A stretch of DNA of 64,000 nt from a virus (lineage: Duplodnaviria; Caudoviricetes). The notes below the pieces were generated by a model. That model had not been told where the DNA came from, did not search any database, and saw nothing but the letters and a program-made list of their open reading frames with translations. Location of the stretch: positions 128,001 to 192,000 of IMG/VR virus record IMGVR_UViG_3300017766_003100. One strand, 5' to 3'. This document shows, piece after piece, positions 1 through 29,815 of this stretch (the first letter of the stretch is position 1; every line of letters begins with the position of its first letter). Both the position numbers and the translations under genes were made by a program.

Positions 1-1
1 A

Positions 2-1327: not shown

Positions 1328-1380
1328 TAATTTATTTATTCCAATTCTTGGTTATCTTTTATTGAAAATAGCAAATAAAC

Positions 1381-1387
1381 TATTTAT
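1381..1387 (+). promoter_or_regulatory. Putative late promoter TATTTAT
   Basis: 16 nt upstream of ATG 1404; recurrent motif before structural genes. Confidence 0.5.
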
Positions 1388-1403
1388 CTAAAAAAGATAA
1401 TTA

Positions 1404-10396: not shown

Positions 10397-10402
10397 AAAT
10401 GA

Positions 10403-10409
10403 TATTTAT
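10403..10409 (+). promoter_or_regulatory. Putative late promoter TATTTAT
   Basis: 20 nt upstream of ATG 10430. Confidence 0.5.
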
Positions 10410-10429
10410 TAAAAAACAAATTATAGAAA

Positions 10430-11338
10430 ATGGCAATTGGTAATTATGGTACAATTAGACCCTCAGATGTTTCACCCGAAGATGTTGAAATAATCTTAAA
10501 CTATACTCCATCTAGAGATGAGACTCAGAATTTTGTATTGACGAAATTAGATGCTAAATCAATATTACGACCATATTTTAATAATTCGGACACTGGCGGT
10601 AATGCGGGTGTTGAAATATTAGGAGGACTTTATAATTTAACATTACCTGCTGAACAATTTAATAGATTGGGTATATACACATTAATGATAAGACCAGCTC
10701 AGATAAGAACTACAATATTAGATTGTGGTATATTATCAGCATTACCAAATGTCAAAGGACTTGTAATTGATTTAAATTCAGTTTCAAATGAATATAGAAA
10801 CAAATTTGTTAATCAAGGTTTGGTTGGATTTAGAGTTGAATATTTGAATGATGATGGGTCAAAAATACCTAATTTTTTCAGGATTATTACATCATCATTT
10901 TTTTGTGAACCAGTTGTTCAAAATTTAACAAATACGTCACAAAAATCTGTAAGATACAGATATACAGACTCAAGTACTAATTTAATATTTTGTACTTTAT
11001 CACCATCAACAGCACCAACATACAAACCAAATGCTATTCCTTTTATAGGACAACCAAATCAAAATATAATAATAACTAATACTTTTTTTAATCCGATAGT
11101 TTTGGATATTGAGGTAGCTGAACACGACTTCTCAACATTGGCGATAGGTCTATTTGGTAATCAGACCAAATCTATTGATGATGGTATTTACACACTTTAC
11201 GATAGTGATAATAACATATATAAACAATATAACTTATACGAAATCAGAGACCAATTTAATGACTTACTTTACGAGGTTAGACAAGATAGAGGGGATAATA
11301 TTGATTTCAGTAAAAACTTTACAAATATTACTCAATAA
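10430..11338 (+). CDS. Conserved-looking virion structural protein (302 aa)
   Basis: Long ORF in baseplate/tail operon. Confidence 0.5.
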   Translation: MAIGNYGTIRPSDVSPEDVEIILNYTPSRDETQNFVLTKLDAKSILRPYFNNSDTGGNAGVEILGGLYNLTLPAEQFNRLGIYTLMIRPAQIRTTILDCGILSALPNVKGLVIDLNSVSNEYRNKFVNQGLVGFRVEYLNDDGSKIPNFFRIITSSFFCEPVVQNLTNTSQKSVRYRYTDSSTNLIFCTLSPSTAPTYKPNAIPFIGQPNQNIIITNTFFNPIVLDIEVAEHDFSTLAIGLFGNQTKSIDDGIYTLYDSDNNIYKQYNLYEIRDQFNDLLYEVRQDRGDNIDFSKNFTNITQ

Positions 11339-14300: not shown

Positions 14301-14514
14301 TACCTTTTCATTCGCACCATTCAACGCGCCAACAGAAACTCAGTACTTTAATGCTTTAATTTCTTCTTTGGACTCTTTGAAAAATATGGGATATGATTAT
14401 TATTTAACAGACAACAATACAGTTGTTGTGTATAATCAAACTTGTCAAACGAATGACAATGGTTTGTTATTTACAATTGATATTGGTATAAACTTTCAAA
14501 TATATTGTAGTTAA
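11338..14514 (+). CDS. Baseplate wedge-like protein (P2 gpI/T4 gp7-like segment), 1058 aa
   Basis: LALTLGW...FLFKSKGTRKSIEGLLRMIG resembles the KGT motif of P2_I-type wedge proteins; TAATG coupling. Confidence 0.5.
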   Translation: MANKFTCPPQGASGSDTFSDNLVGVQLVAGGGLTQGNFNFTTAVTEKVNRTFSTGVFSNPMSLDSMGVSDINQAKAIVENNFKVYPNFDLSQVLNYATYGSLSKRISASITTIISYFPAAIESTAIGLNYTSGTTATNIIYNEISNETSFDLDVSRLRNPFEVDFTVNSTRNLQLREIEVSPLRDMTVQYANYSLYYLDNGYNVTRIIPTNSLTSGTLKIYVAGNPFSGSSESYNDIIIRPNDSVVAKTFNEDLDEIENFLLNRNIVPIYTSSFKVPVEAEDGSFYIENRLVTWPLYGRWNLDILTANFQLYLSSLNQISEYYDEYKTNLISRFLTTGAFNDFDTDGRKMEKVLQIYGRSFDEVQKFITALSFMTSVNYNVGNDIPSQLLRNLALTLGWNTNITPISNEDFLKSVFGETNYDKSNYSGVAVQPTPDELNYQYYRNVILNSAFLFKSKGTRKSIEGLLRMIGAPEALTEFNEYVYLADQRINLDEFDTYWANLSGGTSITETPTLEEGNVFSIQGIEYTGFTTTNTIQSVNLSLSDYPIDSEGYPSAPVDSESYFFQIGGGWFEQTPQHRGPEVVDTTFSVFTGQSTVLQTSLLPPTYGQIYLNRFRKFPFMNLGFVLKSQIDNNKSWYDNEVGLRSNLDGNINARYFTTDDRLVLNVKNVDIFMNPAQGILYDVWAMSRQYNYPIPNEGLNYVPPTYCDPNPYTIYPDKGGVDWTIINPQPARKTFFEFAQTFWQNTINVRNRQYSSNGKTGGYPTLESIYWKYIQSEEFAEIPNNNFKYDNMIEYVNGMGDYWIRLIEQMIPATTIWNTGIKMENSIFHRQKFVWRRQEGCQLVPGDKGGSQSIPPTKETQGGPLVSTPPAGFSVPTIKNKPGGEGKSGGGTGYKGMPPLCRPCALITNIFEYDCNVESIECPIYPWESDPQVTSLSGVLGKVLNTYLANNGYDLNDCVQNTLTSEWYIELKVSGVTMVQTSFFNGVTFSFAPFNAPTETQYFNALISSLDSLKNMGYDYYLTDNNTVVVYNQTCQTNDNGLLFTIDIGINFQIYCS

Positions 14515-17500
14515 TGGCTTGTAGTTTATTTGTAACATTAACTGGTTATACGGGTGATTGTTCAAACACAAATAGTGGTGCTTTTGGTTTAACCATTGAT
14601 GGTACAGCACCTGATTACACAATTCAGTGGATAAACCCTTCCTATGGTACAATTCCATTAGGTGCTGGTGTTACAGGATATAGTGTTAATTCACTCTCAG
14701 CAGGAACATATTCATTATATGTTGTTGATAGTTGTCCTTCGGGAAATACTTATTCATTATTAAATGTTTATATTTCATCAGGTTCTTGTGTATCTATTTT
14801 AGATAGTTCAAATACATCTTGTGGATTTGATAATGGGTCAATAACCACAGCAACTTCAAATCTTTATTTTGCGTCAACTTATTATTTATATGAACTCAAT
14901 GATGGATTTATATCATCAGGAGTTACCCAAAATACTAGTTATGAATTCAATTCTCTATCTGCAGGAACTTATTATGTTATTGCTGATGATGGTGGTGGTT
15001 GTAGTGGAAAATCTGAATCTTGTATTATAAAGAGTTCATCAACATTAAATTTTGGATTATATCAGATTAATAACTCAGCTTGTGTTAATAGTCTTGGTTC
15101 TTTATATGTTACAGGGTTAACTGGAACTCCCCCATATACTTATTCTTGGTTACCAAATGGTGAAACAACTTCTTTCATTACTGGGTTAACCAATGGTTCA
15201 TATTCAGTTGTAGTTACTGATGGATTAGGGTGTACAACATCTCAAGGTGCTATAATTGGACAAGTCCCAACTTTGGGTACTATTTTATTGAATGATGTAC
15301 AACCATCTTGTTTTTCAGCAACTGGTGAAACAACTTTATATATTTCAGGGGGTACAGCACCTTACCACATTCAAGGTTCTAATGGTGAAATTGCAATAAC
15401 TTTTTCAACAATTTATACATTTACTGGATTACCTGCAGGATATTTTTCAGTAGTAGTTACTGATGCGGGTCTTTGTCAATCAACAGCATATACCACATTA
15501 TTAACACCAAGTGCATTATCTGTTGTTACAATTAATGTTACTAATTCTAATTGTAATAATACAGATGGTGAAATATCAGTATCCGTATTTGGTGGGGCTG
15601 CCCCATACACATATACGTTAATTGACTCAAGTACCAATTCACAAATAGGAATACAACCAGTTCAAAATGCGGGTTTCATCTTTACTTCATTGAGTTCAGA
15701 TACTTACACGTTATTAATTAATGATTCATCAAATTTATGTCCATATTCAGGTACAGTTGTTGTTAGTAATAATGTGTTATTTACATTAACAGCACAAACA
15801 ACAAGTACAACTTGTGACCAACCTAATGGTTCAGTTACTTTGGGTATTACAACTGGTGGAACAGCACCATATAGATACCAAATCAATGGATTTGATATTT
15901 TAAATGTGACTGGTTTAACTTATAGTTTTACAAATCTATCATCAGGAAATTATACAGCAATTGTAACTGATGCTAATTTATGTTCACAAACATTACCATT
16001 TACAATTACAAATTTAGGGTCTCTTGATTTTGTTTTATCATCAACAAATCCTACTTTTGGAAATAATGGTGAAATAAGTACGTTAATAACAGATGGAACT
16101 CCACCATTTACATTAAATTGGAGTTCAAATGTTAATGGCCAAACTGGTTTAACAGTGACAGCATTAACTGCGGGAACTTATGTTTTAAGTATTACGGATT
16201 CTTTGGGTTGTACACAAACAAGAAGTTCAATATTAACTGGTTTTAATTTGGTTTCATCTTTTGAAACTTACAATATATGTGAAGGGGCATTAATAGATAA
16301 TGGTTCAAATGTTAGAAAAGGACCTCAACAAATGTTAATAGAAGGATTTACTGATTTAACATCAGGTGATACTAATTGTATATTAAATCAAGCTATTTTT
16401 GAAGTTGAAGTTACTTTATCAGGTGTTAGTGCGACAACGACAGCAACAACATTCTACACTGGAACAAGTATAAATGATTTCCCTGGTGATGACGATTATT
16501 ATTATGCCGTAAGGTCATTATTACTTGGATTTTCAGGTATAACTGATGTTATTATTGAACCTGTCCAAAATCAAATTACAATAGCAACAATTTGTAATCC
16601 ATCAGCGGAATATGTTGATGCTGAAATAATAATTGGAATAAAAATATATTACGATATAAGTTGTGAAGATACTGCACCACCAGTATTAGTACCATTTATA
16701 TTTACAATCGATACTACTAAATTATCGGCAGGTTCAAGTTTAGTTGACCAATTCCAATTACCTACAGTATCAGGTGGATATTATGATTTTGATGTTGATT
16801 GGGGTGATGGAAATACTGATGTTATAACAACTTGGAATGATTCAAATACTTTACATACATATACAGCAACTGGTATTTATCAAATTACTATTAATGGTCA
16901 ATTTAGTGGATTTTCATTCAATAATAGCGGAGACGTTGCTAAAATTTCATCTATTGAACAATGGGGTATATTAGAATTAGGTGATTCTCCTGGACATTTT
17001 TATGGTTGTGTTAATTTAGACTTGAGTGGAACTACAGATGTTATTGATTTGTCAACGACAACAACATTCCTCCAAACATTTAGGAATTGTACATCAATCA
17101 CAACAATTAATAATGCTGAGTTTTGGGATGTATCAACAATTACAGATATGACCGAAACATTTAGAAATGCAACATCATTTAATCATCCAATTGGTTCTTG
17201 GGATGTGTCAAATGTTACAACCACATTTAGAATGTTCCAAACTGCATTTGATTTCAATCAAGATATAAGTGGATGGGATGTATCTAATTTAGTTAACGCT
17301 TTTAATATGTTTACATCTGCAACATCATTTAATCAACCATTGAATAGTTGGAATGTATCTAATATTACAAATATGTCTGGTATGTTTCAAAGTGCGTTAC
17401 TATTTAATCAACCTTTAAGTGGATGGAATGTTTCTAACGTAACTAATATGAGTAATATGTTTTCAAACGCCTCTGTATTCAATCAAGATATTAGTGGATG

Positions 17501-18107
17501 GGATGTATCAAATGTTACAAATATGTCTGGTATGTTTAGTAGTACATTAGCGTTCAACCAACCTTTAAGTGGATGGAATGTTTCTAATGCAACTAATATG
17601 AGTAGTATGTTTTCAAATACTGCAGTATTTAATCAAGATATTAGTGGATGGGATGTATCAAATGTTACAAATATGCTTAGTATGTTTGGTAGTGCCTCAG
17701 CATTCAATCAACCTTTAAATGGGTGGAATGTATCGAGTGTAATAACTATGTTTGGTATGTTCCAAAACGCATCATCATTTGACCAACCAATAGACCTTTG
17801 GAATGTTTCTAATGTTACAGTTATGACTGGAATGTTCAATAACGCAATAACCTTTAATCAAGATATTAGTACTTGGAATATATCTAACGTTACTGATATG
17901 ACATCAATGTTAGATAATTGTGGAATGAATCAAAGTAAATATGAGGCATTATTAGTTAATTGGAATTTATTACCATCATTACAACTTAATGTGATTTTTG
18001 GTGTGAGTGGAAGACAATATCAAATAGGAAGTCCTAGTGACATTGCAAGGTCAAATATCATTGGAACATACGCTTGGACATTTATAGGAGACACCGCAGT
18101 ACCATAA
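14514..18107 (+). CDS. Adhesin-like tail protein: SprB-type repeats, PKD-like domain, BspA/DUF285 repeats (1197 aa)
   Basis: Repeated G.I.V...GGT.PY.Y...L..G.Y.V.VTD..GC units; DVDWGDGNT...HTY; C-terminal FNQxISxWxVSNVTxMxxMF repeats. Confidence 0.8.
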   Translation: MACSLFVTLTGYTGDCSNTNSGAFGLTIDGTAPDYTIQWINPSYGTIPLGAGVTGYSVNSLSAGTYSLYVVDSCPSGNTYSLLNVYISSGSCVSILDSSNTSCGFDNGSITTATSNLYFASTYYLYELNDGFISSGVTQNTSYEFNSLSAGTYYVIADDGGGCSGKSESCIIKSSSTLNFGLYQINNSACVNSLGSLYVTGLTGTPPYTYSWLPNGETTSFITGLTNGSYSVVVTDGLGCTTSQGAIIGQVPTLGTILLNDVQPSCFSATGETTLYISGGTAPYHIQGSNGEIAITFSTIYTFTGLPAGYFSVVVTDAGLCQSTAYTTLLTPSALSVVTINVTNSNCNNTDGEISVSVFGGAAPYTYTLIDSSTNSQIGIQPVQNAGFIFTSLSSDTYTLLINDSSNLCPYSGTVVVSNNVLFTLTAQTTSTTCDQPNGSVTLGITTGGTAPYRYQINGFDILNVTGLTYSFTNLSSGNYTAIVTDANLCSQTLPFTITNLGSLDFVLSSTNPTFGNNGEISTLITDGTPPFTLNWSSNVNGQTGLTVTALTAGTYVLSITDSLGCTQTRSSILTGFNLVSSFETYNICEGALIDNGSNVRKGPQQMLIEGFTDLTSGDTNCILNQAIFEVEVTLSGVSATTTATTFYTGTSINDFPGDDDYYYAVRSLLLGFSGITDVIIEPVQNQITIATICNPSAEYVDAEIIIGIKIYYDISCEDTAPPVLVPFIFTIDTTKLSAGSSLVDQFQLPTVSGGYYDFDVDWGDGNTDVITTWNDSNTLHTYTATGIYQITINGQFSGFSFNNSGDVAKISSIEQWGILELGDSPGHFYGCVNLDLSGTTDVIDLSTTTTFLQTFRNCTSITTINNAEFWDVSTITDMTETFRNATSFNHPIGSWDVSNVTTTFRMFQTAFDFNQDISGWDVSNLVNAFNMFTSATSFNQPLNSWNVSNITNMSGMFQSALLFNQPLSGWNVSNVTNMSNMFSNASVFNQDISGWDVSNVTNMSGMFSSTLAFNQPLSGWNVSNATNMSSMFSNTAVFNQDISGWDVSNVTNMLSMFGSASAFNQPLNGWNVSSVITMFGMFQNASSFDQPIDLWNVSNVTVMTGMFNNAITFNQDISTWNISNVTDMTSMLDNCGMNQSKYEALLVNWNLLPSLQLNVIFGVSGRQYQIGSPSDIARSNIIGTYAWTFIGDTAVP
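17178..17927 (+). repeat. Ten tandem 75-bp (25-aa) DUF285/BspA repeats
   Basis: FNHPIGSWDVSNV through FNQDISTWNISNV; FNQPLSGWNV and FNQDISGWDV units alternate with 150-bp DNA periodicity. Confidence 0.9.
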
Positions 18108-18140: not shown

Positions 18141-18740
18141 TTACCATATTTTTTCTTGTTTCATATAACCTAAAACACAACAATAAGCATCACTCATATC
18201 ATAATTTTCTTTTTTGAGTGTATTGTTTTTTGTATAAACCCAATTTATTTGGGGCTCTCTTTTTGCAACTTGTTCCCATATTATTTGTTTCTTATCACAA
18301 TCTTTTGGATGTCCACCAAATAATACGTATTTACCTTTTCCATTATCTTGAACTAACCAAGGGAAGGCATTCTTTCTTGAGTTATACGTTGATATATACT
18401 CAGGAACTATACCTAATATGTCATAGATTTCCTTTGAGATTAAAGTATTATATCTAAGTAGTGTTTGTATTGTATAAACATTATTTGAGTTCAACAGAGG
18501 CTCTTCTATGACCACATTTGTTATACCTAAATTTTTATATTCTGACAATTTAGATTTAAAAATTTCCGTTTTAAGAAATAATTCTTTAATTTTGTTGTCT
18601 TCTTTTGGTTTAACAATTGGTGATACGTGAGTTAATTCCAATAACTCTTTAGTTTCAATATCAAAAAGTGCCCAACCAATTGTTTTGGTGGACACGTCAA
18701 GACCTAGTATTTTAGGATTAGATTCAATTTTTTTGTTCAT
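18141..18740 (-). CDS. RuvC-like Holliday junction resolvase
   Basis: ILGLDVSTKTIGWA, VVIEEP and DMSDAY catalytic motifs of the RuvC/RNase H fold. Confidence 0.8.
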   Translation of the reverse strand: MNKKIESNPKILGLDVSTKTIGWALFDIETKELLELTHVSPIVKPKEDNKIKELFLKTEIFKSKLSEYKNLGITNVVIEEPLLNSNNVYTIQTLLRYNTLISKEIYDILGIVPEYISTYNSRKNAFPWLVQDNGKGKYVLFGGHPKDCDKKQIIWEQVAKREPQINWVYTKNNTLKKENYDMSDAYCCVLGYMKQEKIW

Positions 18741-18743
18741 ATA

Positions 18744-21700
18744 TTAGAAATCAAATTTCACTACAAATTGTTGAATACCCGTTCTTGGATAAGGTGATTG
18801 TAGCTTAGAAACAATCATAAGTGTTTTATCAGAATCGTAAAGACCTATTTCACTTATATGAACTTTTTTGGTATTATCCCAAGTTGGATTTGATGATGCT
18901 AAAAATTCAGATTGGCCTAAATTTATTTTATATCTCATCTCATAAATTGTTGCTTGAATATCAGTTTCAATGTTACCATAAAAATAATATTCATCACCAA
19001 AATTAAGATTTGTTGTAGTACCTGTTGGCAAGTGAATATAATCAGTTAAGACATATGTATCGGCATTATCATATAAATCTTGAGTAATAACAAAAGTATT
19101 ACCAGTTAACCCTGATTGGGTTAAGAAACCATTTATTGTTGAACCACTTAATTGGTCTGTAAAATCAATAATTTTCCATTCTGTTGGTTCTGGTCTACCA
19201 TTACCATCAATTTTTTGACATATAATTTCAAACTTATTTGCAATAAATCCGTTTTGTACATTACAGAATTCAGAACAAATTGTACTTGCGGTAACAGCTG
19301 AATATGTCGGACAAGTTCCAGTATAACTTCCATAAGTAGTTTCCTCTGAGACTTGAACAATTGCAGAATCTAAAGAACCATCCAAAGTTATAGCACAACC
19401 ACTATATGTAATTCCTGAAGTTATAATTGTTTCATCTGAAATAATAAAACTACAATCAACGACTTTAATTGTTGCACTATTTGCAGTTGTACTTGCCGAG
19501 TAACTACTACAAGTAATATCTACACAACTTTCAAATAAACTTGTTGTTAAACCAGTAACAGGAACAACATCAGGTGTCCAAGTTCCAATTGGAATATCAT
19601 TTTCAGTTAATCCTGTTAAAATGGCTATTCTAGTGTCTGCTGAATAAATCTCCCAAGTAGAATTATAATAAACCAATCTTTCAGCTAAATCAAAATTTGA
19701 TAAATAAAGATTTGTTGACCCACTCAAAGTATTATAATAAGGTATTGTTAAACAAGATTCATTTTCAACACATAATGTGACACATAATAAAGGATTATAA
19801 TTACATTCAGTATAACCTGTTATACCTCCTTCAAAATCAATTGTAAAGTCACCTATTAATCCACCATTTGTAAAATTAATTATTAGGTCAGTACTATTAT
19901 TGTTGGTTCTAATTACCCAATCATTACCATCATAAAAAATATTAGATATCAGTCCCTCGCCAAGAAAACTTCTAAATATTGGGTAACCATTCAAATTTTG
20001 GTCTGTGTTAATAAATGGATAAGCACTATAAGCGTTAGGGGATGTGTCTGGTTGTGGTAAAAACCAAAATGTGAAACCAGAATACCAACAAGGAGTAATA
20101 GATGTGTTAGCCGTAGCTAAACATGAAAATTCATCACCGAATCTTACACTAACATTTTGTGAAGATATTGGATTACAAGAAACATTAGGACCTTGAATAC
20201 TTTGATAGTAATTACAATGTAATGAATTTGTAAATCCTAAATCGTTTGATAATCTGTATGTCACATAAAAATATTCTGTATTACCAGTTAAAATGCCCTC
20301 AACTGAATTATTGTCTAGACCACAAATATTTGGTGTTATTAATGAAACTTTTGGTGCTGGTAAAGTCCAATTTCGATTTGACTTATATGACATTGCCGCG
20401 AGTAATTCTTCGTCATCAATAACAATTATTTTCAAGTCAGGAAATACTTTACCAACTCTATTTGGAATATTAGGCGTTGGTGCATTAGGATTTGGATTGT
20501 CATCCCACAAATGGAAATATCTTATACCAGGGTCATTCATATCAACATTCTTTGTTGATTTTAAATAATTAACTTGGAATAATTCCAAATCTTCAAAACC
20601 TGGTGGGTCAACCCAAAATGTTTGTCCTAAACAACAATTTGGATTTTTGTGCCACATAATCCAAGGTAAATGTATTTTGAAGTTTCTACCTTGACCAGTG
20701 GTGTCATTTGTTGTATCGTCAAATGGTTGCATTGCAAACTTTTCACCATAGAATAAATCAATTGTCTGATTTGTATAATGTATAATACCAATAGCTTTTT
20801 GGTCTTCAGGTAACACATTTACAACTTCATCAAATGAATTAAAATAAAAAGTTGAGCTAGTATCAGTTTGTCCACTACTTGAAGCATAACCCAAATATTC
20901 TTTAGTACCTAAGTAATTAACTGAACCAAATTTTGTATAATCATTTGAAACTGATGAGTCTAATCCTGCAGGACTTTCAGACCAAGGAATATTCATATTC
21001 CAAATCTTAACATCAAATTGGTCTGTATAACAAACAGATTCAAAGTTTATTACATTATCATTCCAATGTCTGAATGGAGTTATACTATCGTATATTTCAG
21101 TCATTTTTGGAGGGTATATAATAGTTCTTGCATAACAATCATTACCCAAATATGAGAAGTCAGGAGTTGGTCTATCTAATGTAATTGTATTCAAACAAAC
21201 TCCAACAATTCTATATGTTAAAATTGGGAAACAACTTTGTAAAGTCACTACACAATCTGGTGGTGCTGGTTGTGGACAAGCATTACTTGGTGTTGGTGTT
21301 GGACAAAACGTTGCACTAGGTGTTGGAGTTGGTGTAGGACTATCACAAGGAAATAAATTTGTGCTTGTGGGTGTTGGGGTTTGTGACACTGGGAACGATG
21401 GTGTCATTGATGGTGTTGGCGACACTGTTGGAGTTGGTGTAGGTGTTGGAAGATTTGAACAATTACAATCAACCAAACCAGTACCATCATAATAAATTGT
21501 TATTATATCACCAACGGCAAATCCTCTAACAACACTTGGATTACAACTATTAAAAACTAAATCAATTGTATTAGTACCATTCAATGTGTTCATCTGAACA
21601 ACATAGTTTGAATTAATAGTGTATAAATTATTTGTTAATGCACTCCAAGTATAATAGTTGGTATCATCTATTGGAGTTCCACTGAAAAACCCTCTTTCTG

Positions 21701-22022
21701 CGGCAGTATTATAGACCGAATCAATAATAGAATCCATAAAAGGAACACCATATGTGTTACCCCCAATGTTATCTACATAGATTGGGTATTTTACATTTTC
21801 TTTATTTGATTGTGGTGAACCTGCAATATTTTGAGCATTGAAACTTGGTTCGAAGACAAAGTAATTTGTCGGATTAAAATTAGGTATAACATTATAACTT
21901 ACTTCACTATCACCAATTTGGAAATAAGAAATATTGAAGTTACCTTCAGATAGTTTTTGTCTACCAGCATCTGTTAACCTTGTGTTTATTAAACCTGATG
22001 TATTTTTAAGAATATATCCCAT
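18744..22022 (-). CDS. Large virion/tail protein with Cys- and (PT)n-rich linker (1092 aa)
   Basis: PTPTPT region near the N-terminus; C-terminal ISEIGLYDSDKTLMIVSKL resembles tail-collar/fibre attachment domains. Confidence 0.55.
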   Translation of the reverse strand: MGYILKNTSGLINTRLTDAGRQKLSEGNFNISYFQIGDSEVSYNVIPNFNPTNYFVFEPSFNAQNIAGSPQSNKENVKYPIYVDNIGGNTYGVPFMDSIIDSVYNTAAERGFFSGTPIDDTNYYTWSALTNNLYTINSNYVVQMNTLNGTNTIDLVFNSCNPSVVRGFAVGDIITIYYDGTGLVDCNCSNLPTPTPTPTVSPTPSMTPSFPVSQTPTPTSTNLFPCDSPTPTPTPSATFCPTPTPSNACPQPAPPDCVVTLQSCFPILTYRIVGVCLNTITLDRPTPDFSYLGNDCYARTIIYPPKMTEIYDSITPFRHWNDNVINFESVCYTDQFDVKIWNMNIPWSESPAGLDSSVSNDYTKFGSVNYLGTKEYLGYASSSGQTDTSSTFYFNSFDEVVNVLPEDQKAIGIIHYTNQTIDLFYGEKFAMQPFDDTTNDTTGQGRNFKIHLPWIMWHKNPNCCLGQTFWVDPPGFEDLELFQVNYLKSTKNVDMNDPGIRYFHLWDDNPNPNAPTPNIPNRVGKVFPDLKIIVIDDEELLAAMSYKSNRNWTLPAPKVSLITPNICGLDNNSVEGILTGNTEYFYVTYRLSNDLGFTNSLHCNYYQSIQGPNVSCNPISSQNVSVRFGDEFSCLATANTSITPCWYSGFTFWFLPQPDTSPNAYSAYPFINTDQNLNGYPIFRSFLGEGLISNIFYDGNDWVIRTNNNSTDLIINFTNGGLIGDFTIDFEGGITGYTECNYNPLLCVTLCVENESCLTIPYYNTLSGSTNLYLSNFDLAERLVYYNSTWEIYSADTRIAILTGLTENDIPIGTWTPDVVPVTGLTTSLFESCVDITCSSYSASTTANSATIKVVDCSFIISDETIITSGITYSGCAITLDGSLDSAIVQVSEETTYGSYTGTCPTYSAVTASTICSEFCNVQNGFIANKFEIICQKIDGNGRPEPTEWKIIDFTDQLSGSTINGFLTQSGLTGNTFVITQDLYDNADTYVLTDYIHLPTGTTTNLNFGDEYYFYGNIETDIQATIYEMRYKINLGQSEFLASSNPTWDNTKKVHISEIGLYDSDKTLMIVSKLQSPYPRTGIQQFVVKFDF

Positions 22023-22027
22023 ACAGT

Positions 22028-22034
22028 ATAAATA
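22028..22034 (-). promoter_or_regulatory. Putative late promoter TATTTAT
   Basis: 5 nt upstream of the 22022 start on the minus strand. Confidence 0.4.
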
Positions 22035-22048
22035 TGTTAATTCATTTT

Positions 22049-22774
22049 TTATGATGTTATTACGTTACAACAATTACAACCAGTAATAACTAAATCAGAT
22101 AAAGAAAATGTATGTTGACTATTTCCTATATAACAATCAACGAATTCATTTTTATATAAAATATCTGTGGTTGTGAGTGTAAAATCTGTGTTATTTGTTA
22201 ATGAAATGTTTGACCATTCTTCATTATATGTTGTTAAATACAATGTTTGATTTTGACATCCAGGTATTGAGTTATAAGTTGAACCAGTACTTGTACCTGA
22301 AGTTGTTATTGAAATTGGAATTGTATCAATAACTAAACTTGAATTTGTAATTGCTGAAACGGAATTCAAATTTGGGGAGGATTTTACTAAATTAGAATGA
22401 CTCAATTTAAAATTTATTGTCACACCATCTGATAATTTAGGAAAAACTGAAACCTTAGTTACGTATTCTTCAGTTTTTTGTGATGGTGATGAATTAATTG
22501 TTTGAGAAGTAGTGTTTAAATATATTGTATATGTTATTGGATTTTGTGGTGGGTTAAGTGTTACAAAATTTGTAAAACTTCCACCTGAAATATCTGTAGT
22601 TGTCACAACATAATTACCTTTACACAAATTTGTGAATATTGGAAATGGTTTAGATGTAATACCATTATCAATTGAATATTGATAAGGAGGATATCCATCA
22701 AATGCTGAGATTGTTATTGCTCCATCACAACCACAAATTGTTTGATTAACTGTTATCGTTGAGTTTAATGACAT
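22049..22774 (-). CDS. SprB-repeat-containing virion protein (241 aa)
   Basis: CDGAITISAFDGYPPYQYSIDNG...FTNLCKGNYVVTTTD SprB-like unit. Confidence 0.6.
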   Translation of the reverse strand: MSLNSTITVNQTICGCDGAITISAFDGYPPYQYSIDNGITSKPFPIFTNLCKGNYVVTTTDISGGSFTNFVTLNPPQNPITYTIYLNTTSQTINSSPSQKTEEYVTKVSVFPKLSDGVTINFKLSHSNLVKSSPNLNSVSAITNSSLVIDTIPISITTSGTSTGSTYNSIPGCQNQTLYLTTYNEEWSNISLTNNTDFTLTTTDILYKNEFVDCYIGNSQHTFSLSDLVITGCNCCNVITS

Positions 22775-22790
22775 AAATTATTTTTATATT

Positions 22791-24284
22791 TTATATTCCA
22801 CAAATACCATTTATTGTTGTTGTACAATAGATAAAATAAATTGTATTGGTTAGTGGTGGTCCTGATGAAAGATTTGCTGTTAAAGTAATACTATAATTTG
22901 TTGGAGAACAAGGTCCTTGCCATCCTTGACTATTCATCAAACCAGGACCACCAATTGTATTATTTATTGTTGCCCCACCAATCCAAAGTGAAGAACTATT
23001 AATACTTAATTGAGATGGACTTATGTTTGTTACATCTAAATAAACATCTAATGTAGACATATTAATACACAATATATCAAAACTTGTAACTGAAACACCT
23101 ACAGGTAAATTATACGTATTCCAAACAAAATTTGGTATAAGATTTTGACCACCACAAGAAGAACCTCTATACTGATTTGGTATATTAGAACCCCAAGTTT
23201 GCCACCATCCTTCATTAATTATAAAGTTAAGAGTTGGTACACTACATATATTTCTGATTGCCGTTATTGTATAACTTGGGTACAAATTAGCATTAGATAC
23301 AAACCAATTATTCAATGGTACATTACTTGCTGTGAATGTATTTGGTGGTGTTGGTAATGGATATGTTGAAACAATATCAATAGGTGGATTAAATTGAGTT
23401 ACCAACTGACTTGATGGTGAACCAGATAAAATCCAATATTGATTCCAATAAATTAATTCATTTCCTGATGGGGATTTCCAAACTGGATGAATAACTCCAT
23501 TATTAGTTTCAAAATAGGCAATAATAAATGGAATTTGTATTAATGTTTTAGGTGCTTGTATTGTTATACACATATTATATTCCATAAACGATGGGTTTGA
23601 TGGAAGTTGTGCTAACGTGGTTGTTGTGGTTGTTGTAGGTTCAACAATTGTACAATTTATTAATAAACTAAAATCACCAAATTGGTCAGTTATCTGAACA
23701 AAATAAGTTCCTGATTCTAAATTTGTGAAGTTAGTACTTGATGAATTTAATGGTGGTATTGACCTTACAGTATTACCTTCATCATCTAATAATATCACTT
23801 GATATGGTGGAGTACCACCAGTAATTTTAACACCCAAACTTCCGTAACCACCACTAACTATTGGTGACGTTGGTTCACATATTGCACCCATAGGATATAT
23901 GGTTAAGACACCACATTCATTTGATTGTAGATAGTTTAGTTGGTCATATTTTCTTGGTTCAGGACAAGTTATTGCGGCAGTTTCAAAAACATCCATCACA
24001 GCATCCAAATTAGCCCAAGTTGTACCAGTTGGACATTGTAATTCACCTAAAATATAACTTACTAAATTATTATCGTAAAAAATTTCCCATTGTGAATCTA
24101 CTAAATCATAAACTATTTTAATTTCTAAATTTTGTCCACAACAAGGGTCATACCCAACATAGGATTTTCTACCATTAACATAACCACCTGGTTTAAGTGT
24201 TGTCTTAAATACACCACCAAAAGATTCAGAGGTTGCTGATAATGATATACAACTACAAGGAGAGACAGTTACAGATGTGGACAT
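22791..24284 (-). CDS. Cys-rich virion protein with SprB-like unit and poly-Thr linker (497 aa)
   Basis: GSLGVKITGGTPPYQV...FTNLESGTYFVQITD; EPTTTTTTTL. Confidence 0.55.
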   Translation of the reverse strand: MSTSVTVSPCSCISLSATSESFGGVFKTTLKPGGYVNGRKSYVGYDPCCGQNLEIKIVYDLVDSQWEIFYDNNLVSYILGELQCPTGTTWANLDAVMDVFETAAITCPEPRKYDQLNYLQSNECGVLTIYPMGAICEPTSPIVSGGYGSLGVKITGGTPPYQVILLDDEGNTVRSIPPLNSSSTNFTNLESGTYFVQITDQFGDFSLLINCTIVEPTTTTTTTLAQLPSNPSFMEYNMCITIQAPKTLIQIPFIIAYFETNNGVIHPVWKSPSGNELIYWNQYWILSGSPSSQLVTQFNPPIDIVSTYPLPTPPNTFTASNVPLNNWFVSNANLYPSYTITAIRNICSVPTLNFIINEGWWQTWGSNIPNQYRGSSCGGQNLIPNFVWNTYNLPVGVSVTSFDILCINMSTLDVYLDVTNISPSQLSINSSSLWIGGATINNTIGGPGLMNSQGWQGPCSPTNYSITLTANLSSGPPLTNTIYFIYCTTTINGICGI

Positions 24285-24322
24285 AAATTTTTAAAAAAAT
24301 AAGTTTATTATACTAATCAACA

Positions 24323-24329
24323 ATAAATA
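24323..24329 (-). promoter_or_regulatory. Putative late promoter TATTTAT
   Basis: 38 nt upstream of the 24284 start. Confidence 0.35.
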
Positions 24330-24332
24330 CAA

Positions 24333-25313
24333 TTAAGAATGTTTTTCTATTATACTTTTCATAACCTCTATGTATTTAATTGTTGAACTATTCTTATCGA
24401 TGTAATCGAAGTAATTAATATTTTCTTTTAATTTTTCTAATGGATTTACGTTTATAAATTCACCTTTATAAAATTTTGACCTTTTTAAATCATCGGTAAC
24501 TCCAGCCATATGTAAAATAGGATGTTTTTCATAAGTTGAAATAGTATCAGTTGCCCAAGAAAAACTTAAATCCTCAACTATTTTTGTTTCGTGGCTAGTT
24601 AACCAAAGATTCCATAAAACCGCCCACATATCAGCTGTCCACATTTGTATTTCTCCCGATGGGACACTATGTCTTTGATTAAATTCAAAAACATTTTTAT
24701 AAAGTAATTGACAATCATTAAAAACTTTTTCCCAAAATGTGTAATCGGTATTTTTGATTAAATATTGAGCACCACCTGAGTTCTTATTATTCTGTTTTAT
24801 TGTATCAACAGAAATACCAATAACATCAGCCATTAATTGAATTAAATGTCCTTTTTGTAGTGATGGGTGTATAGATTCATATCTTTCACAACAAGTCATA
24901 ATATAATCATAATTGATATAACTTAAGGTATCAGATAGATACACAATATCATCTTGTAACAATTTGTTGAAATCAGGGAGTTCTCTAAAAATGATATCAG
25001 AATCGTGGTAAAAGTAACATTTCCCTAAATCAGGATATTCTTTCAACCATCTTGATAAGGCCATTGGTCTTAAACTTGGAATATATTTTTTATCTTTTCT
25101 ATCATCCAAATAATGATGTACGTTAATACCAATCTCTTTTAATTTAATTGACTCATCTGAAGGAAATGTATTTCCATTAACCATAACAAACAAAACGTGA
25201 ATATTTTCAGGTTTAATTCCTTTCTCAATAAAGTTTGTTGTATATATTTTTGTTTGCCAATGGAAGTAAGGGATGTCAGGATGAGCTGATACAAATACCA
25301 AATTATTGTCCAT
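24333..25313 (-). CDS. GT-A fold glycosyltransferase, resembling plant peptidyl-serine galactosyltransferase / hydroxyproline arabinosyltransferase families
   Basis: YFHWQ, YIPSLRP...W, DxD motif (YFYHDSDIIFR), GGAQY, WTADMWA and PILHMAG occur in the same order as motifs recalled from SERGT1/HPAT. Confidence 0.65.
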   Translation of the reverse strand: MDNNLVFVSAHPDIPYFHWQTKIYTTNFIEKGIKPENIHVLFVMVNGNTFPSDESIKLKEIGINVHHYLDDRKDKKYIPSLRPMALSRWLKEYPDLGKCYFYHDSDIIFRELPDFNKLLQDDIVYLSDTLSYINYDYIMTCCERYESIHPSLQKGHLIQLMADVIGISVDTIKQNNKNSGGAQYLIKNTDYTFWEKVFNDCQLLYKNVFEFNQRHSVPSGEIQMWTADMWAVLWNLWLTSHETKIVEDLSFSWATDTISTYEKHPILHMAGVTDDLKRSKFYKGEFINVNPLEKLKENINYFDYIDKNSSTIKYIEVMKSIIEKHS

Positions 25314-25349
25314 ACTTTTTTATAAAAAAATATAGAGAATAATTTGACT

Positions 25350-26567
25350 TTATAAATAATATAGAATATCCGCAGTTCCATTAAATGTTGCATTAGCACC
25401 TAATGGTGTAATACATAACCACATTTCATCTAAAGTACCATTAACATTAGAACCAACTCTAATTTGGTTATCATCAAGTTTCGTTGTAGTTAATGCCGAA
25501 GTACCCGCTTGACCAATCAAAGAAGTCATAATGTGACCAGGGGATGTTATTGTATGTGTATTACCAGTACCCAAACTATATTGGAATGGTGAATTTGGAA
25601 TATCTACCCAAGTTGGGGTATAAGATAAAGTTGGATTGAATTCCATTGTTAATAAATAATTGTCATTAGATGTATTAAGAATACTAATTGCATCGTATTG
25701 TGATGAAACCGATGTATAAGACTCCTTCAATCTATAACCAATATAAGGATATTTTTCACCAGAAGTAGCTAATGTTGTTGTTGCTGTATATGGTACTGAA
25801 ACTGTTGAATATAAACCATTTAAAGCACCTTCAGAAGCTGTTTGAGAACATATCATATCAAAATAACCAGAACCAACACCAACTTGTCTTATTTCATATC
25901 TTATTGGTTGATTAGGTGAGGCCATATAAACTGTTGATATATTATTTGCAGCAGTATAATCAATAAAATAAATTGTTTGACCTGATAATACCATTCCAAA
26001 TCTTAGTCTACCAACACCTAACCATTGATAATCTACAGTCATCAAATTGGTTTTAGTCCAATCAAAATTGTTGGGGTCAAATTGAGTATTAGTCCAAACA
26101 GAAGTATCTGCACTATAAGTACAAGAACCGCTCAAATATATGTTAAAAGTTATTGCACTTGTAACACCATTACTTTCCAAAAAGAAACCATCAAAAACTG
26201 AATTATATGGTGTTCCTGTCGTTGATTGAAACATACCAACCCTTTTAATAACATTAGTTTCAATGGCAAAGTTATTAAAACTAGCTTCAAATAATTGACT
26301 TTTACCTGGTTGATAAATTGGATGTGTTTTTGATTGACGTATAACTAAATCGTTATTAGCTGAAGTAGACATTCTAACTCTTGCATATTGTTGGTCAAAA
26401 ATTGATGTAGCAGTTCCAGCTGTCATTTCATTGACTTGAAGTGGATTTTTATCATAAACGTGTTTGATATCTAAAAGATTAGTTACTGCTGCAGTTCTTA
26501 ATCTACCAAACGCATCTAAGTTTGGGCTATCTGAGTATTTTATCGAATTATTAAAAATGTATGCCAT
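25350..26567 (-). CDS. Putative virion structural protein (405 aa)
   Basis: N-terminal DAFGRLR motif seen in phage virion proteins; beta-rich; structural cluster. Confidence 0.55.
   Translation of the reverse strand: MAYIFNNSIKYSDSPNLDAFGRLRTAAVTNLLDIKHVYDKNPLQVNEMTAGTATSIFDQQYARVRMSTSANNDLVIRQSKTHPIYQPGKSQLFEASFNNFAIETNVIKRVGMFQSTTGTPYNSVFDGFFLESNGVTSAITFNIYLSGSCTYSADTSVWTNTQFDPNNFDWTKTNLMTVDYQWLGVGRLRFGMVLSGQTIYFIDYTAANNISTVYMASPNQPIRYEIRQVGVGSGYFDMICSQTASEGALNGLYSTVSVPYTATTTLATSGEKYPYIGYRLKESYTSVSSQYDAISILNTSNDNYLLTMEFNPTLSYTPTWVDIPNSPFQYSLGTGNTHTITSPGHIMTSLIGQAGTSALTTTKLDDNQIRVGSNVNGTLDEMWLCITPLGANATFNGTADILYYL
25352..25358 (-). promoter_or_regulatory. Putative late promoter TATTTAT(A)
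   Basis: 38 nt upstream of the glycosyltransferase start; overlaps the stop of the upstream gene. Confidence 0.4.
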
Positions 26568-26568
26568 A

Positions 26569-27213
26569 TTATATTATCCACCAATTATTATTTCTTGCCA
26601 CCAATGTAAGTGACATATAGTTTATGTTCATATCAACGTAGGAATTTCCATCAATTGTACCACTTGTTGGGGTTATTCTTATTCTATAAGAACCAGAATT
26701 ACCACCTTCGTCTTTTATAGTTACTTTTAATCCATCCAAAGAATTTGGTGAAAACAGAGTTAAATCGACATCCCCCAAATAACTTATTCCATTATAACTA
26801 AAACCTGATGATAAGGTTACTGCGGAGGTAGTAATACCTGTTGTTGCCTCATAGAATGTGACACCAGTAACCGAATCAATTGTTGCGGTAAATGTTGAAC
26901 CATCACTTTCACCAATTGTAAATGTGTTATTATTATATGTAAAACTCGTAACACTTGTATCTGTAAATCCAGTAACGAAACCTGAAACTGTAAAAGTCCC
27001 ACCCGAAGTATTAGTAAATGTAATAGTACCTGTAGTCGCATCATAAGTCCCACCTGATATGTACACTGATTGTACTAAGTCAGTTACTTGTTGTATTGTT
27101 GCCTTAAATGATGACCCAGCTGGATTTTGTGAAGTGTCATTTGGATTTACAATATGAATTAAATCCGTAAATGTCACAGCTGTTGCAGATGTCCTATCGG
27201 TAAGAAATGCCAT
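26569..27213 (-). CDS. Putative short tail fibre/baseplate protein (214 aa)
   Basis: Fibre-like N-terminus (DLIHIV...SFKATI), Thr-rich shaft, C-terminal VTIKD.GG...IDG...NWWII module. Confidence 0.5.
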   Translation of the reverse strand: MAFLTDRTSATAVTFTDLIHIVNPNDTSQNPAGSSFKATIQQVTDLVQSVYISGGTYDATTGTITFTNTSGGTFTVSGFVTGFTDTSVTSFTYNNNTFTIGESDGSTFTATIDSVTGVTFYEATTGITTSAVTLSSGFSYNGISYLGDVDLTLFSPNSLDGLKVTIKDEGGNSGSYRIRITPTSGTIDGNSYVDMNINYMSLTLVARNNNWWII

Positions 27214-27227
27214 TTAATATTTTATTT

Positions 27228-27234
27228 ATAAATA
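27228..27234 (-). promoter_or_regulatory. Putative late promoter TATTTAT
   Basis: 14 nt upstream of the 27213 start. Confidence 0.5.
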
Positions 27235-27235
27235 G

Positions 27236-27535
27236 TTAGGACATAAAGAAATAACCAACACCATCCATAAAAAAGAAATCCTCTAAATCCATAAATTCTT
27301 TTATATCTTCACTACAATATAATACCTTAAACTTTTCACAACCATCACTTGTTATAACTTTCACACCAATTGCAGGTGCGGAATCAAATTGAGGTGGTAA
27401 AACCATTAAATTGGTAATGGGTACTGTTGTTGATATATATGCTAATAAAATACATTGATTACCGAATACATCACAAACGTAAACAGTGTAAGGTGGATTT
27501 AATCCCCATATATTACTAAAGGAAAGTAAGTTCAT
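27236..27535 (-). CDS. Small Cys-containing virion protein (99 aa), paralog of 29600-29815
   Basis: PYTVYVCDVFGNQCI...VKVITSDGCE parallels PFDIYLCDDPLTTCV...LKVVDDNNCE. Confidence 0.55.
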   Translation of the reverse strand: MNLLSFSNIWGLNPPYTVYVCDVFGNQCILLAYISTTVPITNLMVLPPQFDSAPAIGVKVITSDGCEKFKVLYCSEDIKEFMDLEDFFFMDGVGYFFMS

Positions 27536-27554
27536 ATTATAACTTTATGTAGTT

Positions 27555-27561
27555 ATAAATA
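27555..27561 (-). promoter_or_regulatory. Putative late promoter TATTTAT
   Basis: 19 nt upstream of the 27535 start. Confidence 0.5.
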
Positions 27562-27568
27562 TTACGTA

Positions 27569-29596
27569 TTATAAACTACCCAAACATGTGGCACAATTAT
27601 CAAAGAAAGTATTTCCAGTTGATGGGAAAAAACTTCCTGAGATGTATGTAAATGTTGAACCTAAAGGTAAAGTTGGATAAGTTGATGAGTAGTACATAAA
27701 CTCCCAACAATAATCATTGGTGATAGTTTTAAATATTGTTCCTGGTGTAAATGTAGGAATAGCCAAAGTTTGAATAATATATTCTGTTGGATTTCCACAT
27801 TGTCTGAAAACATAATAACCTATGGCCATAGATGGTGTTGGTGATGGTGTATTTGTTGGTGTTAATGTTGGTGTAACGGTTGGTGTTGGAGTAGGTGAAA
27901 CATCAGGTGTACATAATGAACATTCACCTAAATTTGAATAACCTAAAGGTCCATCAATTAAACTTATTTCATCAATACCAATAACATCCAAATTATAACC
28001 CAAGAAAGAAATACATTTTGAATTTCCATTAACATTTCCTTTAAAAATCATAAATTGGTCAATAGTACCACCTGAAGGTAATGGTATTGAATTGGTTGTA
28101 TAATACATTTCACCAGTATAACAATCTTGGAATTGTTTACTATTCGGACATTTTATTTCTCCATTTACAGTATTAAATGTTACATTACCTAATATGTTTA
28201 TTGGCCTTGTTACATCAGGTGTTGGTGTAGGTGTTGGTGTTAATGTTGCCGTTGGTGTTGGTGTATATCCAGTTATTGTTACATCTATAGCTACATCACC
28301 ACAAGGATTACTAGGTGTTGGTGTTGGTGTACTTGTTGGAGAAGTTGTTATCGTTGGTGTAGGTGTTGGTGTTGGAATATATTCACAATCAAAAACTGCG
28401 GTAAAGTCTAATACGGAACAATTCACAGTTGGCGTTGGAGTAGGTGTAGGACAAGCTCCACTAAATACATATTCATCACATAAATCAGGACAAGTTGAAA
28501 TACAAGGATAAGGTCCTTCTAATAAACAAGTACCATCCAATACTGATGACATACACCAAGTTCCTCCAGTTGTGAAATAAATAACATTACCAGTGTTTAC
28601 CCCTAACCAATATGGTTGGGAATTATGTATACCAGCGTATTTGTAATTGTCATCATAACCCAATCCTGTATCACTAATACAATAATTAACAATATCGGTT
28701 TTATCTATTAGAATACAATATGGTGTACCACTACAAGTATATAATGAATAACCATCAGGACAAGTATATCCAGTTCCAGTTGTTGCCCCACTTGAAGATA
28801 AAGGAACGTCTTGACCAATAAAACTTAATGTTGTAAACAAAGTATCCGCGCTTAATTGTGAATAACTAGTATAACCACTAAGAGTTGAAACAGAACCACT
28901 ATATATTTCAGCAACAAAACTCGCAGGACCTGAATCATTCAGGTTCTCCATTTCAATTATGTTCAAACCTGATGAGAAAGTATATGGGAAAACACTTAAA
29001 AATAGTGTTCCATAACCTTGAGCGATTGATGTACCTGGAAATGTTGATATTGTATCATAAATTAAATTACCATTTATTTTAAATCTAAAATAGTCATCAC
29101 CTGAAATCGCGATAAAATATGTACCTGAAACTGGTATGTCTAAACAATAGGAAAATCCCACATATTCATCTTGTGGGTCAGGATTGTTAGTTGTCCATAT
29201 ACCCGCATTATTTAATCTACCTGTAATTGTAGTTCCAGTACCCCAAAGAGAATTTCTTAAACTAGTCGGACCATAGTATGGTGATGTAGTAAATCCTTGA
29301 CCACCTGCTTGAATATTTAAAATTCTTCCACTATTATCTACTAAAAATTGAGTATTAAAAAGTAATGTACCATTCTCAGTGAATGCTGATGTTGTTGACC
29401 CAGTATTTGTTATTGGGAATGAAAGATTTGTAATGTCTTCATAAAAAATAACACCATAAGCATTATATGCTGTATTAACACTACCTGTTGTTGCAGTATA
29501 AAAAAATGAACCACCACTTGTTGCTGCGGTTACAGTATATATACAAGCATCAGAATCGATGGTTGGGGTATAACCCGATGGACAAGGACAACTCAT
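27569..29596 (-). CDS. Cys-rich virion protein with PA14-like domain and four (PT)n linkers (675 aa)
   Basis: YFIAISGDDYFRFKING PA14-like motif; CPSGY/CPDGY modules; several PTPTPT tracts. Confidence 0.6.
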   Translation of the reverse strand: MSCPCPSGYTPTIDSDACIYTVTAATSGGSFFYTATTGSVNTAYNAYGVIFYEDITNLSFPITNTGSTTSAFTENGTLLFNTQFLVDNSGRILNIQAGGQGFTTSPYYGPTSLRNSLWGTGTTITGRLNNAGIWTTNNPDPQDEYVGFSYCLDIPVSGTYFIAISGDDYFRFKINGNLIYDTISTFPGTSIAQGYGTLFLSVFPYTFSSGLNIIEMENLNDSGPASFVAEIYSGSVSTLSGYTSYSQLSADTLFTTLSFIGQDVPLSSSGATTGTGYTCPDGYSLYTCSGTPYCILIDKTDIVNYCISDTGLGYDDNYKYAGIHNSQPYWLGVNTGNVIYFTTGGTWCMSSVLDGTCLLEGPYPCISTCPDLCDEYVFSGACPTPTPTPTVNCSVLDFTAVFDCEYIPTPTPTPTITTSPTSTPTPTPSNPCGDVAIDVTITGYTPTPTATLTPTPTPTPDVTRPINILGNVTFNTVNGEIKCPNSKQFQDCYTGEMYYTTNSIPLPSGGTIDQFMIFKGNVNGNSKCISFLGYNLDVIGIDEISLIDGPLGYSNLGECSLCTPDVSPTPTPTVTPTLTPTNTPSPTPSMAIGYYVFRQCGNPTEYIIQTLAIPTFTPGTIFKTITNDYCWEFMYYSSTYPTLPLGSTFTYISGSFFPSTGNTFFDNCATCLGSL

Positions 29597-29599
29597 TTC

Positions 29600-29815
29600 T
29601 TAAACTACTAAATTAGAGATTATTTCACAATTATTATCATCAACAACTTTTAAATTATAAGATAATTGACCATCCAAAATTGATGGAACATCAAATGAAT
29701 ATGTACCACCTGTTATGGTATCTACATATACACAAGTAGTTAAGGGGTCATCACATAGATAAATGTCGAAAGGTGTTGAACCTGAAACTCCATTTATAGT
29801 TATTGTTGTTGGCAT
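29600..29815 (-). CDS. Small Cys-containing virion protein (71 aa)
   Basis: First gene of the minus-strand block; paralog of 27236-27535. Confidence 0.55.
   Translation of the reverse strand: MPTTITINGVSGSTPFDIYLCDDPLTTCVYVDTITGGTYSFDVPSILDGQLSYNLKVVDDNNCEIISNLVV

Follow-up and report, generated by a model that had tools for sequence, protein, structure and literature searches.

A phage glycosyltransferase related to plant GT95/GT96 enzymes and its candidate role in glycosylating threonine runs of virion proteins

Does a single glycosyltransferase gene, embedded in a block of presumed structural genes, serve to glycosylate the particle of the phage that carries it? The question is raised by a 64,000-nucleotide (nt) stretch of the IMG/VR virus record IMGVR_UViG_3300017766_003100 (Caudoviricetes; positions 128,001 to 192,000 of the record), hereafter the window, in which the minus-strand gene at 24333-25313 encodes a glycosyltransferase of 326 amino acids (aa), hereafter GT. 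The window, with a G+C content of about 30%, appears to come from a large phage genome; the contig recorded as bearing the enzyme is 295 kb long. A preliminary description of this DNA had recognized an HDSD motif in the enzyme, proline-threonine repeats, (PT)n, and poly-threonine (poly-Thr) tracts in nearby genes, and a likeness to plant enzymes of the GT96 and GT95 families, and had proposed that the phage glycosylates the PT and Thr linkers of its tail proteins. The best explanation of the evidence assembled here is that GT probably works in the cytoplasm as an O-glycosyltransferase on Thr runs of virion proteins, a reading drawn from sequence comparison and structural modeling.

Linkage of the enzyme to proteins with threonine tracts

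GT matches, over its full length, phrog_4417, a family of unknown function (E 1.5e-67; residues 7-320 align with positions 3-290 of the 293-position profile). The family comprises 2292 clusters when grouped at 90% identity and 826 at 50%, and is present in at least 593 IMG/VR loci. A tblastn search (E up to 1e-3) showed that 77 GenBank phage records carry a homolog; these belong mostly to phages of Enterococcus, Lactobacillus, Staphylococcus, Lactococcus and Clostridium, plus one Chryseobacterium phage. The gene neighborhoods were analyzed in 308 IMG/VR loci with GT, taken from four differently centered alignments, whose enzymes fell into 72 lineages when clustered at 70% identity. In 61 of these lineages, a gene no more than two positions from GT encodes a Thr- or PT-tract protein. 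Tracts were found in 81 of 280 near genes (28.9%), defined as those within two genes of GT, versus 43 of 890 far genes (4.8%), defined as those at least four positions away in the same loci; this corresponds to an odds ratio of 8.0 and a Fisher p-value of 1.5e-25, which is inflated because the counted lineages share ancestry and are not phylogenetically independent. In the clade to which the window belongs (105 loci), the +1 gene carries a Thr tract in 50% and a PT tract in 43% of loci, and the +2 gene in 63% and 67%, respectively, while in four other major clades the directly upstream gene bears a tract in 72%, 98%, 100% and 59% of loci.

The tract-bearing neighbors include two unrelated major head protein families (phrog_10 and phrog_29) and two major tail protein families (phrog_88 and phrog_1407). 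In annotated phages, the GT gene is wedged between the major tail protein and tail chaperone genes, or stands right behind the gene for the major head protein. In phiFL1A, Clostridium phage phiCTP1 and LpeD, the homolog comes directly after the major tail protein, and in Lacticaseibacillus phage R3.3 after a probable major head protein; Enterococcus phage VPE25 is another cultured carrier. The upstream proteins of these four phages end in, or consist of, threonine runs, and the neighbor of GT in the Chryseobacterium phage likewise contains threonine runs.

The association was also examined by presence and absence in 24 IMG/VR loci with homologs of the major head protein of Enterococcus phage phiFL1A (48-100% identity), two of which are truncated and could not be assessed. 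In all 12 loci with GT, the head protein and the major tail protein each end in a poly-Thr tail at the C-terminus, and in the 10 assessable loci without GT no protein has a Thr tail. Loci with and without GT intermingle at 84-89% head protein identity, with a locus at 87% lacking the tail and loci at 89% and 85% having it. The co-occurrence of GT with Thr/PT-tract virion proteins, which the preliminary description had proposed as a check, is therefore found both by position and by presence and absence.

An association of this kind could also arise if the Thr and PT tracts were ordinary flexible linkers that merely share residence with GT in the structural modules of related phages, a view favored by the frequency of PT and poly-Thr linkers in Bacteroidota surface proteins and by the shared ancestry that inflates the Fisher p-value. 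We judge this very improbable, given that the far genes come from the same loci and, in small phages, largely from structural modules, that the head and tail proteins with tracts next to GT fall into four or more unrelated families, and that the 12/12 versus 0/10 pattern is interleaved among head proteins as similar as 84-89%.

Fold of the enzyme and its kinship with plant glycosyltransferases

The enzyme gene and its two most conserved segments are located as follows:
24333-25313, minus strand: GT, a soluble GT-A glycosyltransferase of 326 aa, phrog_4417 family, remote relative of GT95/GT96
24996-25007, minus strand: HDSD, the DxD metal/nucleotide-sugar motif, residues 103-106 (D104, D106)
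24465-24512, minus strand: C-terminal HxxG...K segment with invariant H268, G271 and K283

Pfam and NCBIfam scans of GT returned no match (Pfam E up to 1), and PDB sequence searches with the protein and its profile gave chance matches only. The open reading frame (ORF) and its HDSD motif were as the preliminary description had them: in an alignment of 65 diverse relatives D106 is invariant and D104 is conserved in at least 90%, and several aromatic residues are invariant along with H268, G271 and K283. By analogy with GT8-type enzymes, the last three residues likely supply the third metal ligand and a phosphate contact. The AlphaFold2 model built from the 65-member alignment (pLDDT 97.6, pTM 0.93) is a single Rossmann-like alpha/beta/alpha GT-A domain, in which the first beta-strand begins at residue 6 and no N-terminal hydrophobic segment is found. 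Because GT has neither a signal nor an anchor sequence, it must act in the cytoplasm, the site of virion protein synthesis. The family also reaches proteins beyond the phage contigs studied, as indicated by AlphaFold DB entry A0A6C0AQ52 (431 aa), which shares 42% identity with GT and a TM-score of 0.94 with its model.

Among solved structures, 115 chains match the model at Z of at least 8, with GT-A enzymes dominating: glycogenin (Z 15.0 over 226 residues, rmsd 3.7), WbbM (14.1), the Skp1 glycan alpha-galactosyltransferase (alpha-GalT; 13.9), UGGT (13.9), LgtC (13.4) and GlyE (13.2). With the GT8-clan enzymes among these (glycogenin, LgtC, GlyE and the Skp1 glycan alpha-GalT) and with UGGT (GT24), GT shares the GT-A fold at Z 13-15, the DxD motif and a conserved C-terminal His. 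Proteins or protein-bound glycans are the substrates of several of them; GlyE, for instance, is an enzyme of pneumococcal serine-rich-repeat protein glycosylation. GT differs from the GT8 clan in having no sequence match to PF01501 or to any PDB chain, and in a structural similarity below that to GT95/GT96.

These matches bear on the possibility that the acceptor is not a protein but phage DNA, a host cell-wall polymer, a lipid-linked glycan or a small molecule, and that the position of GT among structural genes is incidental. Phages commonly carry DNA- or envelope-modifying glycosyltransferases, and the GT-A clan includes enzymes of lipopolysaccharide, lipooligosaccharide and O-antigen synthesis (WbbM, LgtC). 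Such an acceptor nevertheless appears quite improbable, as it leaves unexplained the Thr tracts in the adjacent gene in 59-100% of loci of four clades and the joint gain and loss of GT and Thr tails on two virion proteins, and sits poorly with a gene placed directly between or behind those for major tail and head proteins. No GT-B DNA-glucosyltransferase-like match was seen, and the best matches are not DNA-modifying enzymes, the kind of match that the preliminary description had set against its own proposal.

The closest relatives outside the family are those that the preliminary description had named on the basis of motif order. Among Swiss-Prot predicted structures, compared as models on both sides, the top match is the Arabidopsis peptidyl-serine alpha-galactosyltransferase SGT1 of GT96 (E 2.8e-11, TM-score 0.64), and the HPATs of GT95 reach 0.56-0.63, ahead of GT8 and GT24 enzymes at only 0.42-0.50. 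In the AlphaFold DB clusters, HPAT-like domain proteins rank right after three members of the GT family. Aligned by hhalign with 23 bacterial HPAT (PF23452) relatives, the GT family gave a probability of 94% and an E-value of 1.4e-7 over 250 columns, with the DxD motifs aligned and the motifs PYFxWQ, DxD, W(T/E)xDMxA and PI(L/I)H in matching order. The 23 sequences are relatives, most with a recorded PF23452 match, of a 284-aa protein encoded at a bacterial locus, L322, which itself passes the Pfam HPAT threshold (28.1 bits versus a cut-off of 23.9 bits); against this single protein the GT family profile scored an E-value of 1e-4. The profile-profile alignment thus indicates that the motif parallel of the preliminary description is real remote homology, though GT lies below the Pfam threshold.

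The plant enzymes are SGT1/SERGT1, of plants and algae, in CAZy GT96, and HPAT1-3/RDN/PLENTY in CAZy GT95 (Pfam PF23452), and both they and the phage clade are tied to Pro/Ser/Thr-rich, extended, surface-exposed acceptor proteins. Identity of GT to them is only 10-15%. The plant GT95 and GT96 enzymes are type II membrane proteins of the Golgi, whereas phage GT is soluble and has no membrane anchor. They act on hydroxyproline (Hyp) or Ser of Pro-rich proteins with UDP-L-Araf or UDP-Gal as donor, whereas the acceptor of phage GT would likely be a Thr run.

Hyp glycosylation in the window itself was discarded as a candidate, since phmmer, a low-sensitivity test, found neither a prolyl-hydroxylase-type nor a GT60 gene in the 64 kb. 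Other loci contain such genes. Locus L322 (1-20502 of metagenome contig ENA ERZ4232553) holds a prolyl-hydroxylase-type 2OG-Fe(II) oxygenase (PF13640), the HPAT-family protein, a sugar epimerase, a separate GT60 gene and a fusion of a phage-type GT to GT60, and looks like a bacterial counterpart of eukaryotic Hyp O-glycosylation pathways. In a phage cassette at L266:4613-13099, a 1778-aa TPPTTPP/PT-repeat protein is followed by a GT homolog, a 298-aa poly-Thr protein and a 405-aa 2OG-Fe(II) oxygenase similar to the prolyl-hydroxylase-type enzyme of L322 (E 6e-23); with these genes, the phage may carry out extensin-like Hyp glycosylation. In addition, bacterial PF23452 proteins of about 380 aa (P0345-P0364) are fused to a PqqD domain (PF05402), a peptide-recognition element of RiPP pathways, which suggests that they are peptide-glycosylating enzymes in RiPP-like clusters.

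Candidate acceptors in the window and the share of GT60

An independent scan of the window recovered the PT and poly-Thr tracts at the positions given in the preliminary description. All of them lie to the left of position 29815, and none was found by our own tract scan in the approximately 60 ORFs of the replication half. The blocks, the nearest neighbors of GT and the candidate acceptors are arranged as follows:
1-18107, plus strand: baseplate and fiber block, with Baseplate_J at 104-1327 and a SprB and DUF285 fiber protein at 14514-18107
18141-29815, minus strand: block containing GT
From 29860: replication genes, the first encoding a primase and an exonuclease
22791-24284, minus strand: 497-aa SprB-repeat-like adhesin or fiber protein directly downstream of GT, with a T7 run at 23610-23642
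9218-10396, plus strand: 392-aa protein of the baseplate and fiber block, possible acceptor, with a T6 run at 9335-9364
18744-22022, minus strand: 1092-aa protein, possible acceptor, with (PT)n linkers at 21306-21458
27569-29596, minus strand: 675-aa Cys-rich protein, possible acceptor, with four (PT)n segments within 27827-28456
25350-26567, minus strand: 405-aa phrog_1645 protein directly upstream of GT, labeled 'virion structural protein' (E 7.8e-48)

According to the proposed mechanism, GT would be a soluble, metal-dependent GT-A enzyme, probably retaining and probably using a UDP-sugar, that acts in the cytoplasm of the infected cell on newly made virion proteins and transfers sugar to the hydroxyls of threonine runs and possibly to Thr or Ser of (PT)n linkers. 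The likely acceptors here would be exposed linkers of fiber- or adhesin-like proteins, in the first place the 497-aa protein, which resembles viral SprB-repeat adhesins, with the 392-aa, 1092-aa and 675-aa proteins as further candidates. By analogy with the other clades, the best-supported acceptors are likely the Thr runs of the 497-aa and 392-aa proteins. The (PT)n linkers of the 1092-aa protein are plausible, as are those of the 675-aa protein, in which they are preceded by a weak match to PA14 (E 3e-4). While the fold, the conserved DxD motif, the homology to the HPAT/SGT clade and the linkage and co-variation with Thr-tract virion proteins are observed, we infer which residue accepts the sugar, how it is linked, from which donor it comes, that GT starts the glycan, the anomeric outcome, predicted to be alpha, and the benefit; the last could be protease protection or linker stiffening, altered adhesion, or masking of the particle.

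Several observations weigh against this interpretation, in addition to the non-independence of the lineages mentioned above. GT has no match to the Pfam HPAT family, and only two of 65 relatives touch PF23452, below its gathering score (best E 0.09). The tracts of the window are short internal linkers, as opposed to the C-terminal tags of small phages, and the virion location of the flanking proteins is deduced from one PHROG label and adhesin-like domains. Literature searches, with subscription literature largely outside their reach, returned no description of the GT family or of phage poly-Thr tags. A further point concerns a second enzyme family, GT60 (PF11397), a gene of which was detected in all five large relatives searched (E of about 1e-60), about 55-65 kb from the GT homolog. 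In three of the four large relatives inspected, the gene directly upstream of GT60 encodes a (TP)n protein:
L355, 8931-10697: GT60 and (TP)n pair
L356, 9214-12574: GT60 and (TP)n pair
L357, 9085-10899: GT60 and (TP)n pair

This order mirrors the pairing of GT with Thr-run proteins, and since GT60 genes follow (TP)n proteins, another enzyme may be responsible for the (PT)n linkers or for the first sugar. Across phages, the GT family goes together with Thr runs rather than with (PT)n, and a division of labor is suggested, with Thr runs for GT and (TP)n for GT60. The proposal that the phage glycosylates both PT and Thr linkers is therefore better supported for the Thr runs, which accompany GT in its occurrence, than for (PT)n, for which GT60 competes.

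GT60, the polypeptide alpha-GlcNAc-transferases that include Dictyostelium Gnt1 and trypanosome mucin-type initiating enzymes, is a separate family with no detectable sequence-level homology to GT, although the two domains are fused in some proteins. More broadly, relatives of GT are fused to the GT60 polypeptide GlcNAc-transferase, protein O-fucosyltransferase (O-FucT), F5/8 type C lectin domains and a methyltransferase, and one relative carries a compact cassette of GT, a (TP)n protein and GT60. GT60 is probably part of the same virion-glycosylation program as GT. These findings lend some weight to a different role, in which a GT60 or host enzyme sets the first sugar and GT adds a later one: the fusions to GT60 and O-FucT domains, the GT60 genes of the large relatives and the cassette would all fit elongation, as would the closeness of structural matches that use sugar acceptors (Skp1 glycan alpha-GalT, LgtC, UGGT). 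We consider elongation unlikely. In phiFL1A and phiCTP1 no GT2- or GT1-family gene (PF00535, PF00534) was found, so GT is the only recognizable candidate there to start a glycan, yet in small siphophages of this kind its co-variation with Thr tags is perfect. Moreover, its nearest outside relatives, GT95 and GT96, are initiating peptide O-glycosyltransferases.

The statement that GT sits in an otherwise structural block is borne out in part. The phrog_1645 label of the upstream ORF and the SprB-like 497-aa protein agree with it, while the other genes of the minus-strand block gave no informative match. The phrog_1645 ORF is far more conserved than its neighbors, the best 120 of its 2986 relatives being at least 75% identical to it, and it is probably a major structural component. 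Because the fold model of this ORF is of low confidence (pLDDT 43.7, the alignment being too shallow), its virion role is taken from the PHROG label. A conserved pairing of phrog_1645 with GT was ruled out: the gene upstream of GT in Chryseobacterium phage MA9V-3, the nearest cultured phage, is unrelated to this ORF, and the phrog_1645 neighbor is common to only 11 close loci. Megablast of the block turned up no match, and so no near-identical phage, among GenBank phages.

The preliminary description had also assigned GT its own TATTTAT motif. The motif does stand 39 nt upstream of the gene and is one of many in the window:
25352-25358, minus strand: TATTTAT promoter-like motif upstream of the GT start
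TATTTAT sites just upstream of ORF starts (examples, with the GT site included): 1381, 10403, 22028, 24323, 25352, 27228, 27555, 29834, 34494, 35259, 50378, 53479 and 58642

Sixteen of the 45 occurrences precede an ORF start on the same strand by no more than 60 nt, where 3.75% would be expected (p 3.5e-12, a value uncorrected for AT-rich intergenic composition). In these 16 cases the motif is 1-39 nt upstream on the coding strand, and six of the 10 genes of the minus-strand block are covered; TATTTAT is probably a phage promoter element. Among relatives, it occurs upstream of GT in 20 of 104 loci, compared with 30% of neighboring genes, and is therefore not a conserved feature of the GT gene. 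A conserved late promoter specific to GT was accordingly rejected as a feature of the family.

Other genes of the window were noted in passing. The 1197-aa plus-strand fiber-like protein at 14514-18107 combines SprB repeats (E 2.5e-18) and DUF285 repeats (E 5.4e-105), modules typical of Bacteroidota and Mollicutes surface proteins, which point to a Bacteroidota host. At the end of the otherwise fiber-like minus-strand block, 18141-18740 (minus strand) encodes a RuvC-like Holliday junction resolvase (phrog_159, E 9.5e-8). A 71-aa ORF at 29600-29815 (minus strand) has a borderline match to a Kre9/KNH-like Ig domain (23.2 bits versus a cut-off of 24.6 bits).

Known virion glycosylation and significance of the finding

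To our knowledge, glycosylation of phage-particle proteins has been demonstrated only in a few mycobacteriophages. In these phages, virion glycosylation alters antibody recognition. Freeman et al. (2023, Cell Host Microbe 31:1216), as cited in PMC12363180, reported that the virions of Che8, Corndog and Myrna are glycosylated: glycosyltransferases encoded by these phages act on the capsid and tail-tube proteins of their own particles. The small-phage relatives of GT resemble this case in that their presumed tags are at the C-termini of the same two kinds of protein, and in that the GT gene stands in or beside the structural module. There are also differences: the enzyme family is apparently another, with no Mycobacterium phage among the names tallied or listed from the 77 tblastn records; the presumed acceptors of the window are internal linkers of fiber-like proteins; and the mycobacteriophage modification is proven by mass spectrometry, whereas the present system is a proposal from sequence and model comparisons. 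Relative to that case, the novelty would lie in the enzyme, whose clade differs and is a sister of plant GT95/GT96, in the simplicity of the tag, a Thr run, and in hosts that range far more widely.

A broader picture may be drawn, which we put forward tentatively and only as a whole, as it seems possible rather than probable. The Thr run and its dedicated cytoplasmic enzyme would form a tag-and-enzyme system extending from 38-kb Enterococcus siphophages to freshwater phages of about 300 kb, in which a Thr run would mark any virion protein and the enzyme would be the prokaryotic and viral sister of the extensin- and arabinogalactan-modifying GT95/GT96 of plants. Large phages would add the GT60-(TP)n pair and further glycosyltransferases, giving a mucin-like particle coat, and loci with a prolyl-hydroxylase-type oxygenase (the L266 cassette and bacterial L322) may even perform plant-like Hyp O-glycosylation.

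If GT does glycosylate Thr runs, glycosylated virions would be widespread, occurring in phages of Enterococcus, Staphylococcus, Lactobacillus, Lactococcus and Clostridium and in large environmental phages, which would bear on phage therapy (immunogenicity and clearance), on the biology of dairy phages and on the adhesion of fibers to surfaces. A short poly-Thr tag together with a single 300-aa enzyme would also interest biotechnology as a compact and portable means of O-glycosylation in the cytoplasm. The phage enzymes offer soluble relatives for structural work on GT95 and GT96, families for which our PDB searches returned no solved chain, and the link to them places the origin of these enzymes, regarded as typical of green plants, in a context of prokaryotes and viruses.

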